Origin: Dehalococcoidaceae bacterium
GTDB lineage: Bacteria; Chloroflexota; Dehalococcoidia; Dehalococcoidales; CSSed11-197
Assembly: GCA_016928015.1 (NCBI GenBank)
Contig: JAFGLQ010000119.1
Location: forward strand, 1-38,306
Direction of reading: 5' to 3'
DNA: 38,306 bases
Below the pieces are notes generated by a model. That model had not been told where the DNA came from. It saw only the letters and a list, made by a program, of their open reading frames with translations, and did not search any database. Shown here one piece after another: positions 1,667 through 25,683 of the stretch (the first letter of the stretch is position 1; the number at the start of each line of letters is the position of its first letter). The translations under genes were made by a program, and so were the position numbers.

Positions 1667-3616
1667 ATGCCTGAAATCAAACCTGAGTGCTCTCAGGCCT
1701 CCGGCCCTCAAAAAATATTTTCCTGGCCTTACCACCGGTATATGTCTATGTACCGGCATTCGCTGGAAGATCCTGAATCATTCTGGGCCACCGAAGCCAG
1801 AAAGCTTAACTGGGCTCAGCAATGGGAGAAGGTGCTTGAATGGCAGCCGCCTTACGCAAGATGGTTTGTAGGCGGTAAAATCAATGCATCCTACCAGTGC
1901 CTGGACCGTCATGTAAAAACATGGCGGCGTTCGAAAGTAGCTATCTACTGGGAAGGTGAAAATGGCGAAACCAGGACTCTGAGTTACTCCACCCTCTTCC
2001 GTGAAGTTAACCAGTGTGCCGATGTTTTATTGAAGCTTGGTGTAAAAAAGGGTGATATAGTTGCTCTGTACCTTCCCATGATTACCGAATTACCGGTATT
2101 TATGCTGGCTTGCGCGCGTATCGGTGCGGTGCATACCGTCGTATTTTCCGGCTTGAGCGCCCAGTCACTCGGTGACCGTGTTAATGACTGCAAAGCCAAG
2201 GTAGTGGTTACCGCGGATGGAGGCTATCGCCGGGGTAAAATATTTAAACTTAAGCAAACCGCTGATATCACGGTTAACAGTTGCCCTTCGGTTGAAAAAA
2301 TACTGGTGGTCAAGCGCACCGGTGAAGACGTACCCATGGTTGAAGGCAGGGATTACTGGTACAGTGATTTGATCGATGAAGACGTGCATTACGTGGCACC
2401 TGAAGCCTTTGAGGCAACTCACCCCTTATATATTTTATATACCTCAGGAACAACCGGCAAGCCAAAAGGTGTTGTTCACAGTACTGGAGGCTACCTGGTG
2501 TTCAATCATTCAACTTTTAAATGGATTTTCGACATACGAGAAGACTCTGTGTTCTGGTGTACAGCCGACATCGGCTGGGTTACCGGTCACAGTTACGCTG
2601 TCTATGGTCCTCTTTCTCATGGCGCTGCTATAGTGCTGTATGAGGGGTCTCCGGATTATCCCACCATCGACCGGTGGTGGGATATAATCGAAAAATACAG
2701 TGTAAATATTTTCTATACCTCTCCTACAGCTATCCGGATGTTCATGAAGTACGGTGAAGAATATCCCGCCAGGCACAATCTTTCCTCCCTCGAGCTGCTG
2801 GCCAGCGTGGGTGAGCCGATCAGCGCCGAGGCCTGGTGCTGGTATTACAAGCACATCGGACAGGAAAAGTGCCCCATTGTCGATACGTGGTGGCAGACCG
2901 AAACGGGAGGTTTCATGATCGCTCCCTCACCCGGTATCGAACCAATGCCGCTCAAGCCTGGTTCAGCCACTTTACCCCTTCCCGGCATTGATGTGGCAAT
3001 TCTGGATGCTGAAGGAAACGAATTGGGTACCAATCAAAAAGGTTATCTGGTTATAAAGAAACCCTGGCCCGGAATGCTTATGGATATTTACGGAGATTCC
3101 GAACTTTATAAGAAAAATTACTGGTCACGTTTCAAAGGCGTCTACTATCCGGGTGACTACGCAATGCGGGACGAAGACGGTTATTTCTGGCTCTACGGAA
3201 GAGCTGATGAAGTGTTGAAAGTTGCCGGCCATCGCATCGGCACTGCCGAAATAGAATCTTCGGTTGCCGAGCTCGATGAAGTTACCGAGGCCGCCGTCGC
3301 CAGCCGTCCGGATGAAGTTAAGGGCGAAGCCATAGTTTTGTTTATCAGCCTCAAAACCGGTTACAAGCCATCGGATGATCTCAAGAAGGCTATTGTGGGG
3401 CATATACGAAAAAATATTGGACCGATTGCGGCACCGGATGAAATATATTTTGTGCAGAGTTTACCTAAAACGCGCAGTGGTAAAATCATGCGCCGCGTTT
3501 TAAAGGCAGTTGCGTCCAACCAGGGGCTCGGCGACTTATCCACCATCGAGGATCAGGAATCCGTTACGGAAGTAAAAAAGGCATATGAAGCGCTTAAGGG
3601 CTGTACCAGAGACTAA
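1667..3616 (+). CDS. acs: Acetyl-CoA synthetase (acetate--CoA ligase)
   Basis: AMP-binding YTSGTTGKPKG, DTWWQTETGG and LPKTRSGKIMRR motifs; AAGGAG RBS. Confidence 0.95.
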   Translation: MPEIKPECSQASGPQKIFSWPYHRYMSMYRHSLEDPESFWATEARKLNWAQQWEKVLEWQPPYARWFVGGKINASYQCLDRHVKTWRRSKVAIYWEGENGETRTLSYSTLFREVNQCADVLLKLGVKKGDIVALYLPMITELPVFMLACARIGAVHTVVFSGLSAQSLGDRVNDCKAKVVVTADGGYRRGKIFKLKQTADITVNSCPSVEKILVVKRTGEDVPMVEGRDYWYSDLIDEDVHYVAPEAFEATHPLYILYTSGTTGKPKGVVHSTGGYLVFNHSTFKWIFDIREDSVFWCTADIGWVTGHSYAVYGPLSHGAAIVLYEGSPDYPTIDRWWDIIEKYSVNIFYTSPTAIRMFMKYGEEYPARHNLSSLELLASVGEPISAEAWCWYYKHIGQEKCPIVDTWWQTETGGFMIAPSPGIEPMPLKPGSATLPLPGIDVAILDAEGNELGTNQKGYLVIKKPWPGMLMDIYGDSELYKKNYWSRFKGVYYPGDYAMRDEDGYFWLYGRADEVLKVAGHRIGTAEIESSVAELDEVTEAAVASRPDEVKGEAIVLFISLKTGYKPSDDLKKAIVGHIRKNIGPIAAPDEIYFVQSLPKTRSGKIMRRVLKAVASNQGLGDLSTIEDQESVTEVKKAYEALKGCTRD

Positions 3617-3701
3617 TTGCCATGCCGGACTTTGCAAGTTGATGCTTTGTTGATACAAGAATATTATTGAATAAGAATAGAAAACGTAATTGGATTAATT
3701 C

Positions 3702-4772
3702 ATGCTGAAAAGACTCGACAATATTGTAGCCCGATACAGGGAACTTGAAGAGGAAATAGGTTCTCCTGCAGTTGTTTCCAACCCCAAACGGCTTCAGGAG
3801 ATTGCCCAGGAACGTGCGGGTTTGGAAAACCTGGTTGAAACTTACCATGCCTACAAAGCAGCTGATGCCGAATTGAGTTCTTTGAAAGAAATGCTGAAAG
3901 AGCCCCTCAGTGATGAACTGAAAGAAATGGCCCAGGAAGAAATAGCTGTCCTTGAGAAGAAGCTTGTAGGACTGGATCATGATATAAAACTGGCCTTACT
4001 GCCTAAAGACCCGAGCGATGAACGAAATATTATCATGGAGATTCGTGCAGGGACCGGTGGCGATGAAGCCGGTTTGTTTGCCGCTAATCTGTACAGAATG
4101 TACACCAGGTATGCCCAAATCAAAAACTGGGCGGTTGATATAGTTGACATTAACCAGACGACCATAGGCAGCATAAAAGAAGTCATTTTGGAAATAAGAG
4201 GCGAAGGCGCCTATTCCCGGTTGAAATATGAAAGCGGAGTACACCGCGTCCAGCGTGTGCCTACTACGGAATCTTCCGGCCGAATACACACTTCCACAGC
4301 TACTGTCGCTGTGCTGCCCGAGGCCGAGGAAGTTGAAGTTGAAATCAATCCTGAAGAAATTCGAACAGATATTTTCCATTCAGGTGGGGCAGGCGGCCAG
4401 AATGTAAACAAAGTCGCCACTGCTGTTCGTATTACACATTATCCCACCGGTATTGTGGTAACCTGCCAGGACGAGCGGTCACAGTTGAAAAACCGAAACA
4501 AGGCTATGGCTGTTTTACGTGCCAAGCTTCTTGATTTGGAACGACGCCGACAGGAATCGGAAATAACCTCGCAGAGGCGCTCTCAGGTAGGTACCGGAGA
4601 ACGTGTTGAAAAAATACGAACCTACAATTATCCCCAGGACCGAATTACCGATCACCGAATAGGGTTATCAATGCATAACCTTGAAAAAATCATGGAAGGC
4701 AACCTCGATGAACTGTTTGATTCTCTGGCTACCGAATTTCAAGCCAGACAGTTGGAGGAAGAGCTCATTTGA
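3702..4772 (+). CDS. prfA: Peptide chain release factor 1
   Basis: GGQ motif ([10 protein letters not shown]), PxT codon-recognition motif (RVPTTE), IRTYNYPQ; prmC directly downstream. Confidence 0.96.
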
Positions 4773-18129: not shown

Positions 18130-19284
18130 ATGAAGCTATCTTGCCTTCAGGAAAATTTGAATAAAGGGCTAAATCTCGTTGGCAGAGCAGCTGCAGCCCG
18201 TACTACTTTGCCGATTACCAATAACGTTCTTCTGTCGACTGATGGAGGCAGGCTGAAGCTGGTTGCTACCAATCTTGAAATGGCCATAAGTTGCTGGATT
18301 GGCGCCAAAGTTGACGAAGAAGGCGCCATTACCATTCCTGCCAGAATCTTGAGTGAATTCGTAGCATCTCTGCCTAATGATAAAGTCGAAATGACACTCT
18401 CATCCAAAACACGGGTACTCGAAATGAAATGCGCCCGTTTCGAAGCCAGGATGAGCGGCGTTGACGCCAAGGATTTTCCTCCCATCCCCCATATAGATGA
18501 TGGTATAAGCACTACCGTCGAAGCCCTCGAGTTAAAACGCGGTATTCGTAAAGTGGCTTTTGCCGCGGCTGTGGATGATTCCAGGCCTGTTCTTACCGGA
18601 GTCAATGCAGAATTTGATGATCAGACACTAACACTCGCCGCAGCGGACGGTTTTCGTTTGGCAGTATACAAAATGCCTCTGGCAACCAGAGTTAGCCAAA
18701 AAATTACCGCCATCATACCGTCACGCACACTTTTTGAGCTTCAAAAACTTTCAGCAGATCAGGAAGGGCCCATTACAATCGTACTTAATCCCTCCCGCAG
18801 CCAGATCATATTCCGCCTCAAAGATATTGAGCTTGTTTCTCAGCTTATACAGGGAACATTCCCCCAGTATTCCCAGTTAATCCCCCAAAGTTACGGTACC
18901 AGAGTTGTAGCCAATGTAAAACAACTCTCCCAGGCAAACAAGACTGCTTCCATTTTCGCGCGTGACGGCAGCGGAATCGTCCGCCTGGTAGTGACTCCCG
19001 GTGAAAGCGAAGTGACTCCCGGCAAAATGACCGTGTCTGCTCGGGCCGAAGAACTTGGTGAAGACACCGGCGACATTGATGTTACCGTACAAGGGGATGA
19101 GTCGAAGATTGCGTTCAATACACGCTACTTGAAAGAAGTGCTGGAAGCCATTTCCGAAGCCCAGTCCGATGCCGAAAAACAGGTAGCGCTTGAGATTACC
19201 AATCCTTCGAGCCCCGGCGTGTTCAAACCCATAGACGAAGACAACTATTTGCATGTGATTATGCCTATGTTCGTCAGTTGGTAA
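18130..19284 (+). CDS. dnaN: DNA polymerase III beta sliding clamp
   Basis: ATNLE, RPVLTG, ADGFRLA, GTFPQY, AFNTRY and VIMPM motifs; GAGGTG RBS; TTGAGC-N18-TATACT upstream. Confidence 0.96.
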   Translation: MKLSCLQENLNKGLNLVGRAAAARTTLPITNNVLLSTDGGRLKLVATNLEMAISCWIGAKVDEEGAITIPARILSEFVASLPNDKVEMTLSSKTRVLEMKCARFEARMSGVDAKDFPPIPHIDDGISTTVEALELKRGIRKVAFAAAVDDSRPVLTGVNAEFDDQTLTLAAADGFRLAVYKMPLATRVSQKITAIIPSRTLFELQKLSADQEGPITIVLNPSRSQIIFRLKDIELVSQLIQGTFPQYSQLIPQSYGTRVVANVKQLSQANKTASIFARDGSGIVRLVVTPGESEVTPGKMTVSARAEELGEDTGDIDVTVQGDESKIAFNTRYLKEVLEAISEAQSDAEKQVALEITNPSSPGVFKPIDEDNYLHVIMPMFVSW

Positions 19285-19317
19285 TATAGATTTGATGTAT
19301 ATTCGCCCGGAGGTGTC

Positions 19318-20178
19318 CTGGTAGGCATTATAAACCTCGGCCGCCTCACATTAATTTGTCTTGTCGTGATAACCGGTGCAAGCTTGTTAGCGTTAGCGGC
19401 ATGCGCTGCAGATCCGTGGCAACCTGAAAATATTTTTACATCTTCCCAAGAGGGCTCAACGGGAAATATCGCCAGAAATATTACTGCTATCGAAGCATTT
19501 AATCTGTTAAGCATCAATTCAGACAATCGCGACTTTGTAATTTTAGACATAAGAACGTCCGAAGAAAGGACTCAGGCCTACATTAAGGGGTCGATTTTAC
19601 TTGACTGGCATAGCGGCTACTCTCAGCAGATAATCAGCCTGTTGGATAAAAATAAAACCTACCTGGTTTACTGAAAAAGCGGTTTGCGGAGTTCTTCCGC
19701 TTTGGAGTTAATGAAATCTCTTGAGTTTAACGAGGTTTATGACTTACATGGAGGTATCGTCGCCTGGGAAGAGGCCGGTTTGCCTCTGGTAACTCCTGAC
19801 ACTTCAGGCAGTACAAGTGATCCCGCCACCACTTTGCCCGCTGCCACCAGCCCGCCTTCATCCAGCGACAGTAAAACACCGGCAAAATTTGCCGTCTCGA
19901 ACCTTCACACGGATCCCCCTGTGCCTGTCCCTCCCAGCGGCCTCTTCTCTTTCATTGTTACGGTTACCAACGAAGGTGGTGTTGAAGGTTATTATGAAGC
20001 GGTCGTTGAAGTGGTTGAAGTTATCGGTGTGATAAGGCTGGAAATTGGGAGTGTATCAGAACGCGTATTGATTCCACCAGGCCAGAGCAGAATCGTAACG
20101 TTCGAACAAATACATCTGACTCAGGGAATTTTCGAAGCAACTATCGAAAAGGAAAACCTGTTATTCGAATGCACCTGA
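19318..20178 (+). CDS. Probable selenoprotein: lipoprotein with a Sec-containing rhodanese domain, S/T/P linker and Ig/CARDB-like domain (TGA 19672-19674 read as Sec)
   Basis: ORFs 19366-19674 and 19684-20178 are in the same frame, giving KTYLVY-TGA-KSGLRS where rhodaneses have YC(R/K)SGxRS. LDIRT..E before and LHGGIVAWEEAGLP after; lipobox LAAC; SECIS-like hairpin. Start uncertain (CTG 19318 after GGAGGT, or GTG 19366). Confidence 0.8.
19686..19700 (+). promoter_or_regulatory. Candidate bacterial SECIS element
   Basis: GCGGA-GTTCT-TCCGC hairpin; the loop begins with G, 16 nt 3' of the in-frame UGA. Confidence 0.65.
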
Positions 20179-20196
20179 GGCTGAGGGACCTGGTGA

Positions 20197-20215
20197 CGGC
20201 TGCCGTTGGCAGCCG
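20197..20215 (+). other. GC-rich hairpin: second SECIS candidate or weak terminator
   Basis: CGGCTGCC-GTT-GGCAGCCG, 8-bp stem with a G-first loop, no clean U-tract, preceded by three in-frame TGAs. Confidence 0.5.
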
Positions 20216-20303
20216 ATGCATGTTATGTTAAATCCAACTATTTACATTAAATTCTATGCCTTTAATGACTGTTTGTTCGCATTTCCATCCGGCTGACATG
20301 TTT

Positions 20304-22731: not shown

Positions 22732-23910
22732 GTGAAATTATTAGTTGTAGGTTGCGGGCAGGCCGGAGGCCGCATTTCTGACGAATTCGCCCTGCTTAAC
22801 AAAAAAGCGCGTGCCGAACGCGGTTTCGATATCATGACAAACATTCTTGCGGTAAACACCGACGTTGCCGATTTGAGTGGATTGTGCCACATAAAAGCCG
22901 ATTTTCATCATCGTATTCTGATCGGCAGCGGCAAGACTCACGGCCATGGTGTCGGCAAAATGAACGAAATAGGCGCTGCCATCGCCCGTGAAGATGGCGA
23001 TAAAGTTCTGGACAAAATAAGAGATACCAAGAACCTTCCCGAAACAGACGCTTTCATGGTTGTAGGCAGCGCTGCCGGGGGTACTGGTTCCGGATCCGTG
23101 CCCGTAATAACTCAGATTATTAAAGAACATTTTCCCGAAAAACCTGTATATAATCTGATTGCCTTGCCGTTCAAGTTCGAAGAAGTGACGGAGGAGCGTT
23201 CGGTTTACAACGTGGGCACGTGCCTTAAATCCGCTTACCTGGTCGCCGATGCTATATTCCTTGTTGACAACCAGCGTTATATCACCAAAAACGCTTCCAT
23301 GCGCCAGAATCTGGCCAAGATAAACCATGACATAGTCAAACCTTTTTACAACCTGTTATGCGCCGGCGAAGAAACCGATGTGAAATACATCGGTTCCAAG
23401 GTGGTTGACGGGGGTGATATTATCCAGACTCTTTCCGGATGGACAACCATTGGTTACGGCAGAACTAAAACTTCCGTAATGAAACTGCCTTTCAATAAGT
23501 CGGTCGATTTCCGAAGCAAAAATACTGAAGCCATGCCCGGAACCCAGGCTATGAACGAAGCACTGGGCGAACTGTCACTGAAATGTGAACCCAATGATGC
23601 CCGTAAAGCTCTCTATATCATTAATGCTCCGCCTGATGTTATGAGCATGGACCTCATCAAGGACCTTTCTGCCGCTTTGAGAGAAATGGCCCCGCAGGCG
23701 ATTATCCGCAGTGGCGACTACCCGAGAGGCAAAGGTTCGGTCGATGTGACAATTTTACTTTCAGAACTGGTCAACTCTCGTAAGGTTATGAGTTACTTTA
23801 CGAAAACCATCAGCTATATGTCTCACATACGCACTGAAAGAGGCTATATCGAAGAGCAGGAAAGGGGCCTTGCCGGCGCTTTCCAGGATATTCCATCCCT
23901 TCTTTCATAA
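22732..23910 (+). CDS. Tubulin/FtsZ-superfamily GTPase, CetZ-like
   Basis: T1 loop GCGQAGG, AVNTD..DL, RILIG..KTHGHGVG, signature GGTGSG, LVDN and T7 region VVDGGDIIQTL; GGAGG RBS with GTG start. Confidence 0.9.
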   Translation: MKLLVVGCGQAGGRISDEFALLNKKARAERGFDIMTNILAVNTDVADLSGLCHIKADFHHRILIGSGKTHGHGVGKMNEIGAAIAREDGDKVLDKIRDTKNLPETDAFMVVGSAAGGTGSGSVPVITQIIKEHFPEKPVYNLIALPFKFEEVTEERSVYNVGTCLKSAYLVADAIFLVDNQRYITKNASMRQNLAKINHDIVKPFYNLLCAGEETDVKYIGSKVVDGGDIIQTLSGWTTIGYGRTKTSVMKLPFNKSVDFRSKNTEAMPGTQAMNEALGELSLKCEPNDARKALYIINAPPDVMSMDLIKDLSAALREMAPQAIIRSGDYPRGKGSVDVTILLSELVNSRKVMSYFTKTISYMSHIRTERGYIEEQERGLAGAFQDIPSLLS

Positions 23911-23964: not shown

Positions 23965-25683
23965 TTATTCGTCGTCTGTGTCAGTTTTTCTGGTTGCTCC
24001 ATGCTGTTCAAGCTCGCTGAACATCTGCTCCAGTTCTTCCAGTCTGGATTTCTTCATTTCCTGCGTTTCAACCGGTATCTCATTTGAAGGTAGCGTGTTC
24101 TCTTCTTTCACGGGTTCGTAAATTTCATCGAATTCCTCGGTATTTACCGGTTCCGGGCGTTCTGTCGATATCTGGCTTTTAGTGGCGGTATCGATTTTCT
24201 GTATTTTTGGAGCTTGCTTTTCTATTTTTTTCAAATCGCGCTTCAGTTCCCTGGAAACCTGCCCTGCCACCTTGTTTATTTCGCCCGTGCCGCTGATCAT
24301 TCTTTCTATAATAGGCAGGGACATTCCAACGGCTTCCTGCAAAGCCAGCCTGGCGGCATTGATGGCATCTTCAGCTGTTTGCACGGCTTGCCGGGCTGCT
24401 ATTTCCGCTTCCTGCGACAAGCTGGTTGCATTTTCAAGCGCATTCTGTGATTGCCGGAGAGCGGCAGTGGCCTCCTTCCGGGCTTTTTCGGCAGTTTCTT
24501 CGGCGCGGGAAATGGGCAACCGGGACGATTTTACCCAGCCTTGTATATCATCAACTGCTTTCGAGCTTATTTGCTGAGCTTTTTCTATTGCCTTCTGAGA
24601 AGAGGTTATTGCCTGGTCTGCGGTGTGTTTAGCCACGTTACCGAGGTCAATTGCCTTATTCGAACTGTTCAGCGCATCTTGTTTGGCCTGTTCTACCGAT
24701 AGTTCTGCCTGACGGATAGTGTCTTCAATATTAGCAATCGCCTCTTTAATCATAACAACAGCCTGGTTGGCGTTTTCACTGGCCTGCTGGCTGCTTTGTT
24801 CTACGCGAAAAATAGATTGCTTTGAAAGCTTGAGCGCTTCATCGGCCGTGTTCTTGGCCCACTGGCTGGAATCATTGGCCATTTTTATTGCCTTTTCAAA
24901 GTTACTGGAATAACCCGCGGCAGTTTCCTGGGCAATGGCTGCGGCTCTTTCAGCCCTTTTTACGGCATCCTCGCTCAATCTGGCTGAAGCGTCGGCTACC
25001 TTCCTGGATGCACGGCTTACTTCATCAGCCCTTAAAATGGCTTCATTGGAAATCCGGGCGGCTTCAGTAGCCGATTCCCGGGTGGTTTTTCCCATTTCTT
25101 CTACCTTTTCGATTGCCTGCTGTCCCAGCAGAACTGCGTTTTGAGCTTCACTTTTAGCCTCGTTTGACATTCTTTCGGCGCTTCTGAGGGTTTCCTGGGA
25201 TTGTTTTACTGTTGCTTTAATTTCATCCAGCGTTTCCCTGGCAATTTTTTCTATGCGGGCAACTGTATCTTCAAAGGAGCGTGAAAGTTCTTTTGAAGCC
25301 TTTGTAGAGTTTTCCACGCTTTCTTCGGCATTTCTGGCAGCATGTTTGAATGCAGCTTCAGCTTCTTCGGCTCGCGCTTTGGCCTGGCTGTAATCTTCTG
25401 CTGCCTTGGATACGGCTTCTTCTGCCTTTAATACAGCTTCCTCAGCGCGGCGTACCGCATTTTCAGAAGCTCTTTTCGCTTCGGATGAATCTCTTTGCGC
25501 TTGTTTTACAATTTCCTTTGCGTTATTAAGCGCTTCCTTGCTTACTTTTATAGATTCTTTGGCCTCTTCTTTTGACTGGTTGGATAGATTCACAGCCTCT
25601 GTAATCTCTTTTCTTAAAGCTTCAGTTTCTTTTTCCATGCTTTTAAGGTCTCCTGCAGTAAAATTATGGCTGTTATTATTCAA
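23965..25683 (-). CDS. Long Ala/Glu/Ser-rich coiled-coil protein with 25-aa repeats (hypothetical)
   Basis: 572-aa ORF, AGGAG RBS and TTG start; no TM or signal peptide visible; almost Pro-free helix for about 490 aa, then an acidic tail. Confidence 0.85.
   Translation of the reverse strand: MNNNSHNFTAGDLKSMEKETEALRKEITEAVNLSNQSKEEAKESIKVSKEALNNAKEIVKQAQRDSSEAKRASENAVRRAEEAVLKAEEAVSKAAEDYSQAKARAEEAEAAFKHAARNAEESVENSTKASKELSRSFEDTVARIEKIARETLDEIKATVKQSQETLRSAERMSNEAKSEAQNAVLLGQQAIEKVEEMGKTTRESATEAARISNEAILRADEVSRASRKVADASARLSEDAVKRAERAAAIAQETAAGYSSNFEKAIKMANDSSQWAKNTADEALKLSKQSIFRVEQSSQQASENANQAVVMIKEAIANIEDTIRQAELSVEQAKQDALNSSNKAIDLGNVAKHTADQAITSSQKAIEKAQQISSKAVDDIQGWVKSSRLPISRAEETAEKARKEATAALRQSQNALENATSLSQEAEIAARQAVQTAEDAINAARLALQEAVGMSLPIIERMISGTGEINKVAGQVSRELKRDLKKIEKQAPKIQKIDTATKSQISTERPEPVNTEEFDEIYEPVKEENTLPSNEIPVETQEMKKSRLEELEQMFSELEQHGATRKTDTDDE

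Follow-up and report, generated by a model that had tools for sequence, protein, structure and literature searches.

A probable selenocysteine rhodanese lipoprotein encoded across an in-frame UGA in a Dehalococcoidaceae bacterium

The gene and its in-frame UGA codon

The window, a stretch of 38,306 nucleotides, is contig JAFGLQ010000119.1 (assembly GCA_016928015.1) of a Dehalococcoidaceae bacterium, here contig C37 of genome G000 (1.61 Mb, 92% complete, 51% G+C). On its forward strand the open reading frames (ORFs) 19366-19674 and 19684-20178 lie in the same frame, the TGA at 19672-19674 being the sole interruption. Reading across this codon gives the product ...KTYLVY-U-KSGLRSSSALELM..., in which the TGA falls at the catalytic cysteine column of a rhodanese domain (motif YLVY-U-KSGLRS) and would encode selenocysteine (Sec, U). 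A single match to the Pfam family Rhodanese (PF00581; 55.6 bits for a cut-off of 22.2, E about 7e-15 to 8e-15) bridges the TGA. The initial annotation of this DNA had read the two ORFs as one frame with a single TGA and both halves of the rhodanese fold intact around it; the ORF coordinates, the read-through product and the Pfam match all agree with that reading. The UGA is position 1 of the six-residue active-site loop U-K-S-G-L-R, and the K, G, R and S residues of the active site are invariant in the aligned family, whose 14 members all match PF00581.

The gene was also expected to be split by gene callers. This is how it appears in a public collection of 5.8 billion proteins, where every copy is stored as a headless C-terminal fragment of 155-158 amino acids. 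The extent first given to the gene, 19318-20178, holds for the frame and the UGA, but its end probably does not, as the gene may well continue beyond 20178. We consider it very probable from the comparisons below that the window harbours a real Sec-rhodanese gene with Sec at the active site. The whole reading, one exported, lipid-anchored rhodanese gene with a catalytic selenocysteine, is given a probability of about 0.8. Coordinates of the individual features are collected in Table 1.

Interchange of Sec and Cys among homologues

A paralogue on contig C10 of the same genome, with 27% overall identity, is built alike and reads YLVY-U-KKGGRS, with TGA at the same column. Homologues were searched in 363 genomes of the order, 157 of which have one; among the matches listed, all 12 TGA-flagged rows were inspected and G142 was the only one with U, the rest having Cys and a terminal TGA. 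The strict pattern Y-L-[VI]-Y-U-K-x-G-x-R-S gave 3 matches in genome contigs, each lacking ORF context. A motif pattern applied to metagenome contigs returned 23 matches, which resolve into 17 true Sec-rhodanese genes and 6 chance occurrences. This amounts to 16 distinct Sec forms in three clades, represented by the window gene (clade A), the C10 paralogue (clade B) and the G142 gene (clade C). The 37 other homologues examined all have Cys at the catalytic column, which is the Cys/TGA interchange at one column that the initial annotation had proposed to look for. In a tree of 48 domains the 16 Sec rows are all found within one supported set of 18 (97/93), completed by two Cys rows that both come from the genus of G142. 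This distribution fits one origin of Sec and later reversions to Cys. One clade-C Sec-rhodanese (L051:698-1405, minus strand) is fused to a different C-terminal domain, which has a C-x4-C-H motif, matches nothing in Pfam and may be a redox or haem-binding module.

The half of the gene that follows the UGA is under selection. In six pairs of clade-A contigs, dN/dS past the UGA is 0.15-0.25 (dS 0.29-1.17) over 167 codons, which contain neither a frameshift nor an additional stop. Such purifying values indicate that the second half is translated. The gene order dnaN - rhodanese gene - DUF2177 - recN - CetZ is kept in four of four clade-A contigs.

Several points weigh against Sec at this position. 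The presence of selenium in the protein is deduced from sequence comparison. The Sec forms of metagenomes were gathered by motif, so that their sample is biased and Cys forms of the same clades in metagenomes are left out. Sequence data of the sample and its study, one DNA run and two RNA runs, aligned to the window, gave nothing crossing the TGA at 19672; they yielded a contig of 212 nt at 19742-19953 and a match of 31 nt that comes from another organism. This last match, exact to window positions 19643-19673, is present in two copies on one contig of the same sample (2.5 kb, high depth), which probably carries there the active site of a tandem Cys-rhodanese from another abundant organism.

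The TGA could then be the trace of a TGY codon in an ordinary Cys-rhodanese, altered by pseudogenisation or by a sequencing or assembly error. It is one base away from TGC or TGT, the nearest sampled relatives mostly have Cys, reads or contigs across the site are lacking as said above, and the start codon of the window copy is also non-canonical. However, three clades with 16 distinct sequences share an identical TGA, and this genome has two genes with it, which speaks for Sec and not for the nonsense mutation that the initial annotation had set against it. The purifying selection and the 167 uninterrupted codons past the TGA point the same way, and we regard a pseudogene or an error as extremely improbable.

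A conserved hairpin downstream of the UGA

The segment GCGGA(G) at 19686-19691 can pair with (U)UCCGC at 19695-19700, in a stem that starts 11 nt past the UGA. The GCGGA/UCCGC hairpin had been annotated with its loop G 16 nt downstream of the UGA, and this position is recovered, with a stem that extends to 6 bp (GCGGAG-UUC-UUCCGC). The G at 19691 belongs to the window loop only under the 5-bp register (GCGGA 19686-19690, UCCGC 19696-19700), where it lies 16 nt past the UGA. RNAalifold, run on 15 distinct sequences, yields a single consensus, the 7-pair hairpin GGCGGAG-U(G/U)C-(C/U)UCCGC(C/U), with 98% of cells paired. The Arg, Ser and Ser codons of the stem are CGG, AGT and TCC in 16 of 16 Sec forms; 13 of the 14 other invariant degenerate residues of the 62-codon stretch vary in codon, and the Cys forms use CGG in 3/33 and AGT in 7/33 cases.

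A covariation analysis, named in the initial annotation as a check, has a divided outcome: the hairpin is conserved and is the sole RNAalifold consensus, but the internal stem varies only between G-C and G-U pairs and shows no compensatory changes. The argument for the hairpin therefore lies in its frozen synonymous sites. Other observations detract from it. Its arms fall in the conserved R-S and S-A codons. The window hairpin is no stabler than shuffled sequences (z -0.29, 65 of 200 shuffles folding as well), and the minimum free energy (MFE) structure of the window as a single sequence is an alternative 7-bp pairing. A stem of at least 6 pairs is found nearby in 10 of 33 Cys forms, Sec and Cys forms are not told apart by plain MFE past the codon, and the Cys orthologue of G144 retains the internal hairpin. 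Rfam has no match at the gathering score on the window, nor one with E up to 1 between 19500 and 20400. The support for the internal hairpin is comparative and not a matter of single-sequence stability.

Selenocysteine machinery and other selenoproteins of the genome

The genes selA, selB, selC and selD, whose presence had been put forward as a check of the Sec assignment, are all found in the genome. They lie on contig C100, with the tRNA-SeC, selD, selA and selB side by side; selD has its own in-frame TGA at an SGU motif and selB codes for a wing that binds the selenocysteine insertion sequence (SECIS). SelA is detected in 35 of the 61 relatives searched. TGA terminates 260 of the 984 long open frames of the genome and is hence an ordinary stop codon, with no reassignment. 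We propose that the UGA at 19672-19674 would be recoded by SelB with Sec-tRNA(Sec), steered by the hairpin 11 nt downstream. The conservation of this hairpin is observed and its binding by SelB would be the natural reading of it.

The UGA might also be passed without selenium, by near-cognate insertion of Trp or Cys, or the two halves might be made as separate polypeptides. TTG 19684 could start the second ORF, and public gene calls follow that choice. Against this, the break sits exactly at the catalytic residue within one fold, no start codon past it is conserved across clades, and the genome has a complete Sec machinery together with a conserved hairpin at SECIS distance. We hold both variants to be very improbable and retain insertion of Sec at the UGA.

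Screening the whole genome for read-through of UGA produced 794 raw candidates, and the analysis went on with those that have a Cys paralogue or carry a known motif. The other selenoprotein genes found are those of PrxU, of a CxU rhodanese lipoprotein and of a Se_S_carrier/GGGU protein, whose hairpins are small, G+C-rich and 9-14 nt past the UGA, comparable in size and placement to that of the window gene. The selenoperoxiredoxin PrxU (FTFV-U-PTE; C22:1989-2699, minus strand, equal to L110:290-1000, minus strand) matches NF040737 with 380.7 bits for a cut-off of 270, and its SECIS has 8 bp, an AGUU loop, a distance of 9 nt from the UGA and a z of -3.06. The CxU protein is a third Sec-rhodanese of the genome (FYC-D-U-PDD; C11:8782-9297, minus strand, equal to L109:283-798, minus strand). 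It is a lipoprotein too (lipobox LTAGC), with a Pfam Rhodanese match and a score of 40.2 against the NF041203 cut-off of 115; its hairpin GUCUGCC-AAGUC-GGUAGAC starts 14 nt past the UGA. The third gene (C89:18611-19213, plus strand, equal to L111:312-914) joins an N-terminal Se_S_carrier domain (PF11823) to a C-terminal ...SGGG-U-PDIP segment. It has no NCBIfam match, and an upstream paralogue, 49% identical, has Cys at the U column. A gene on C104 (plus strand, about 2080-3840) has four in-frame TGAs at positions where its C65 paralogue has R, R, G and F; decay of the copy is one possible reading among others.

Export signal and start codon

Of the 14 aligned proteins, 13 have an n-region containing K or R, a hydrophobic core and a lipobox, and the lipobox Cys column is invariant in all 14. 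The genome encodes lgt and lspA (Lgt 231 bits, LspA 130 bits). From these signals the product is probably an exported lipoprotein. Its precursor would be lipidated at the lipobox Cys and anchored to the cytoplasmic membrane on its outer side.

The window copy is less regular at its start, and this counts against its export. It has ATA at 19330-19332 where the orthologues L054 and L052 have ATG, with the ATG of L058 one codon later, and it has GTA where L054 has TTG. A start at GTG 19366 leaves a peptide of 12 residues before the Cys, with no charged n-region. The frame is open upstream to the dnaN stop at 19282-19284, and the Arg of the n-region and the hydrophobic core are kept. Rare bacterial starts of translation table 11 include ATA, ATT and CTG. 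Translation would thus begin at a rare upstream codon or, with a short signal peptide, at GTG 19366.

The same substitutions and the short peptide before the Cys could instead mean that the start codon has decayed from ATG to ATA and that the window copy is poorly expressed or not exported. The open upstream frame, the retained Arg and hydrophobic core, the purifying selection on the remainder of the gene and the place of ATA among the rare starts make such decay improbable, and we keep the lipoprotein assignment. The lipoprotein described in the initial annotation therefore holds for the family, through the signals of the orthologues and the presence of lgt and lspA, with the reservation that the window copy has ATA and not ATG.

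The C-terminal domain

The same annotation had described the C-terminal domain as CARDB-like. A direct match to Pfam CARDB (PF07705) was not found at E up to 1 among the 9 domain-carrying members. A HMMER scan of 1.84 billion representatives with the C-terminal domain detected 49 relatives, among them giant DUF11 and Ig-repeat (Ig_7) surface proteins and the protein P0038. P0038 matches CARDB with E 1.4e-15, and hhalign aligns the family profile A7 to it with 97.8% probability (E 7e-13). These alignments support a CARDB-like C-terminal domain at profile level. The scan also found small lipoproteins consisting solely of the C-terminal domain and three more headless rhodanese fragments; the cluster look-up gave no useful names. 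A hidden Markov model of the domain matched 60 of 401 genomes of the class, and most of the 29 loci inspected in other genomes code for generic surface proteins, many of them ending in a hydrophobic anchor. The enzyme domain would thus be followed by the Ser/Thr/Pro linker and by a CARDB-like Ig domain. This order of domains is seen in the protein, and its position at the membrane surface is the predicted part.

A probable C-terminal tail with two further UGA codons

In clade A the frame ends with ...FECT and is followed by TGA GGC TGA GGN ACC TGG and a TGA or TAG, with substitutions limited to the third position of GGN and to the stop codon that ends the frame, where TGA and TAG alternate at the same codon. 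Related ends are found in clade B (...FIGAG TGA GGN AGY GGC AGC TGC AGT TAG), in the Cys-rhodanese of G144 (...VLPG TGA GGC TGA GGT TAA) and in a stand-alone lipoprotein of G002, from the same genus (...FEVT TGA GCT TGA GGC ... TGG TAG). A hairpin follows the last UGA in every case, at 10-12 nt in clades A and B and G144 and at 18 nt in the G002 lipoprotein. The window hairpin, CGGCUGCC-GUU-GGCAGCCG at 20197-20215, begins 12 nt past the second tail UGA and by itself has a z of -1.69. Over 10 sequences compensatory changes occur in 5 of 8 pairs, a result equalled by 0 of 500 shuffles; in the five core pairs 49 of 50 cells are paired, and the loop GUU is invariant. In size, loop and distance the window hairpin resembles the SECIS of PrxU, also from this genome.

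When the proteins are aligned, the C-terminal Cys of six homologues (...EVGC, ...NIDC, ...IQCS) shares its column with the first tail UGA of the window gene and of G002, and four gene calls end directly before this column. G144 and G002, both tail carriers, have SelA and SelB. The Cys-rhodanese of G144 with the U-G-U-G tail (L048, G144:C32) is on the same contig as selA/selB (G144:C32:955-3968), about 11 kb away.

From these comparisons we give an even to slightly better than even chance to a translated tail C-T-U-G-U-G-T-W, carrying two further Sec residues beyond the annotated stop. The odds are even that the protein has three Sec, one at the active site and two in the tail, with a second SECIS past the true stop, and that it marks an unrecognised family of CARDB-like lipoproteins. 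The tails of this proposed family have the core motif G/A-U-G, with Cys in some members, and are fused to a Sec- or Cys-rhodanese or found in stand-alone proteins. A second 'T-U-A-U-G' site, on C69, is regarded as a chance occurrence in a frame that appears to be antisense.

The gene may as well end at 20178, the hairpin then stabilising the transcript or acting like a terminator and the tail staying untranslated, to which we give a little less than an even chance. Two UGAs one codon apart and sharing one hairpin are unusual, the hairpin itself accounts for most of the conservation in clade B, a weak terminator-like match overlaps 20204-20218, and about 10 sequences are at hand; all this counts against a translated tail. 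A UxU tail occurs in 0 of the 29 CARDB-like loci inspected in other genomes of the class. On the opposite side stand the third-position substitutions between the UGAs and the stop, the switch of the final stop between TGA and TAG at one codon, the terminal Cys of the six homologues with the four gene calls that stop before it, the lack of a U-tract after the hairpin in orthologues, the match of hairpin form and distance to the PrxU SECIS, and the SelA and SelB of G144 and G002.

Table 1. Features of the rhodanese gene and its surroundings in the window.
Feature	Position	Strand	Basis or remark
Shine-Dalgarno-like GGAGGTG	19309-19315	+	Purine-rich block at the same position in orthologue L054
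Possible N-terminal extension (n-region, start of h-region)	19318-19365	+	No ATG/GTG/TTG; ATA 19330-19332
GTG start 19366, hydrophobic stretch, lipobox L-A-A-C 19393-19404, predicted lipidated Cys 19402-19404	19366-19404	+	
Rhodanese domain spanning the UGA	19522-19773	+	PF00581, amino acids 53-136 of the 270-residue reading
UGA read as selenocysteine, catalytic position (very probable)	19672-19674	+	Comparative: Cys/TGA column, tree, dN/dS
SECIS-like hairpin GCGGAG-UUC-UUCCGC	19686-19700	+	RNAalifold consensus, invariant codons
Ser/Thr/Pro-rich linker	19792-19881	+	Translations; Thr-rich counterparts in the paralogue and clade C
CARDB-like (Ig-like), beta-rich C-terminal domain	19882-20175	+	Profile-level homology
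Probable tail TGA GGC TGA GGG ACC TGG TGA (U-G-U-G-T-W-stop)	20176-20196	+	Codon variation, Cys alignment
Tail hairpin CGGCUGCC-GUU-GGCAGCCG, proposed SECIS	20197-20215	+	Covariation

Neighbouring genes and other observations

Further along the window, 22732-23910 (plus strand) codes for a protein of the tubulin/FtsZ family whose C-terminal domain is that of CetZ (PF21011, E 6e-20), here in a bacterial genome. This CetZ-type protein is 99% identical in two related contigs despite diverging neighbours. The 572-residue ORF at 23965-25683 (minus strand) has no Pfam match and is 77% conserved in related contigs. Elsewhere in the genome four reductive-dehalogenase homologues lie above the TIGR02486 cut-off, on C57, C58, C62 and C82, and the host may respire organohalides, judging from them. 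Two relatives of the same order have 27 and 30 reductive-dehalogenase matches, against these four above the cut-off in G000. On this comparison the order of G000 is probably Dehalococcoidales.

Proposed function

In rhodaneses a loop of six residues (C/U-X4-R) is that of sulfurtransferases, the loop of phosphatases or arsenate reductases having seven. The six-residue loop of the window protein makes uptake of sulfane sulfur the likeliest chemistry. Its sequence neighbours in the Protein Data Bank (PDB) are single or tandem rhodaneses, 6mxv and 1qxn (Sud). We tentatively privilege a role in sulfane-sulfur transfer, at odds somewhat below even. Sulfane sulfur from thiosulfate or polysulfide would be taken up outside the cell as a Se-S (selenopersulfide) intermediate and then handed to an acceptor, as periplasmic Sud does with Cys. 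The selenols or thiol of the tail would accept or resolve this Se-S intermediate. The gene neighbours speak against the assignment: they are housekeeping genes, with no sulfur-metabolism operon at the locus, so that the function is read from fold and motif.

The main functional rival is a surface handling of selenium, arsenic or a metal, for example selenite capture, instead of sulfane sulfur. The title of a cited reference has a rhodanese able to carry selenium, and in Geobacter the rhodanese lipoprotein ExtH is described beside a porin tied to selenite/tellurite reduction. The genome itself invests in selenoproteins, and stand-alone CARDB-like lipoproteins have the same Cys/Sec tail with no rhodanese. 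The loop, however, has the six-residue sulfurtransferase form, and no transport or reductase genes are adjacent. We therefore see selenium handling as an unlikely though serious competitor of sulfane-sulfur transfer.

Relation to known proteins

Mammalian thioredoxin reductase, which ends in GCUG, offers a comparison for the proposed tail. Sud is a periplasmic transferase of polysulfide sulfur. The Sud protein of Wolinella succinogenes (1qxn) is, as predicted for the window product, a single rhodanese outside the cytoplasm, with a sequence match at E 1.5e-5, and it serves as a working model for binding and passing on polysulfide sulfur. Unlike the window protein it uses Cys, is soluble and has neither Ig domain nor tail.

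Sec-rhodaneses appear in surveys since the Sargasso Sea study, and a 2026 review describes five forms, two of them UxxG (PMC13188914, PMC1088965, PMC9312934). These two, forms 2 and 4, are tabulated in selenoproteome surveys as 'rhodanese-related sulfurtransferase', in agreement with the statement of the initial annotation that Sec-rhodaneses had been reported there. As described in the surveys, they share with the window protein the PF00581 domain, Sec at the catalytic Cys position and the UxxG motif, and they too were predicted from Cys/TGA pairing and a small hairpin with a loop G. The survey descriptions of forms 2 and 4, on which the comparison is made, mention no lipoprotein signal, CARDB-like domain or extra Sec codons. 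The Sec-rhodanese models of NCBIfam stay below their cut-offs (rhodanese_LYCAU NF041203, 39.8 for 115; TsoB NF045694, 25.1 for 805), the motif here being UxxG and not the CxU or UxxxxU of those families.

ExtH of Geobacter sulfurreducens (extHIJKL) is, by its description, also a lipid-anchored extracytoplasmic rhodanese, and it adjoins a periplasmic multihaem selenoprotein that is now shown to be a polysulfide reductase (PMC6148476, PMC5877670, PMC13510729). It differs in its 49 kDa and its diderm host, and the description does not present ExtH as a selenoprotein; an ext-like cluster was not found at the window locus. The SaoC 'CC-COOH' lipoproteins include C-U variants, mostly with lipoprotein signals (Haft preprint, 10.1101/2022.07.06.499078). 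As described there, they resemble the proposed tail family in their short C-terminal redox tail and in a UGA beside Cys that gene callers misread as a stop. They belong to other folds and systems, and the motif here is C-x-U-G-U-G or G-U-G. The Cloacimonetes proteins P0056 and P0057 also join a rhodanese to Ig-like domains (DUF1573) in one protein of 369-374 amino acids, but their Ig family is a different one and their identity, 35-40%, is confined to the rhodanese part.

Titles and abstracts of the literature gave no Sec-rhodanese lipoprotein, CARDB-linked selenoprotein or UxU tail. BSepDB is described as including Dehalococcoidia with 46-49 selenoproteins, and a 2022 review states that for most predicted selenoproteins the function is unclear. 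The Sec-rhodanese core (UxxG) adds a member to a kind of selenoprotein already known; the lipoprotein/CARDB architecture and the probable tail extension are new.

Significance

Sec-rhodaneses have been predicted since 2005 and are listed in surveys as predicted proteins, among which the family described here is a well-defined case. It offers a probably extracytoplasmic enzyme with Sec and Cys versions within one genus and paralogues in one small genome, and so opens to experiment the question of why an enzyme of sulfur transfer would have selenium in place of sulfur. It also makes testable how uncultured sediment Dehalococcoidia handle polysulfide, thiosulfate or selenium at their surface. The headless copies in the protein collection reveal a gap in annotation, and the possible tail would escape even pipelines that catch the internal Sec. 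If the tail is true, the rhodanese would have a built-in selenol partner, an extracellular selenol/thiol arm that would accept or resolve the sulfane sulfur, or selenium, bound to the enzyme.

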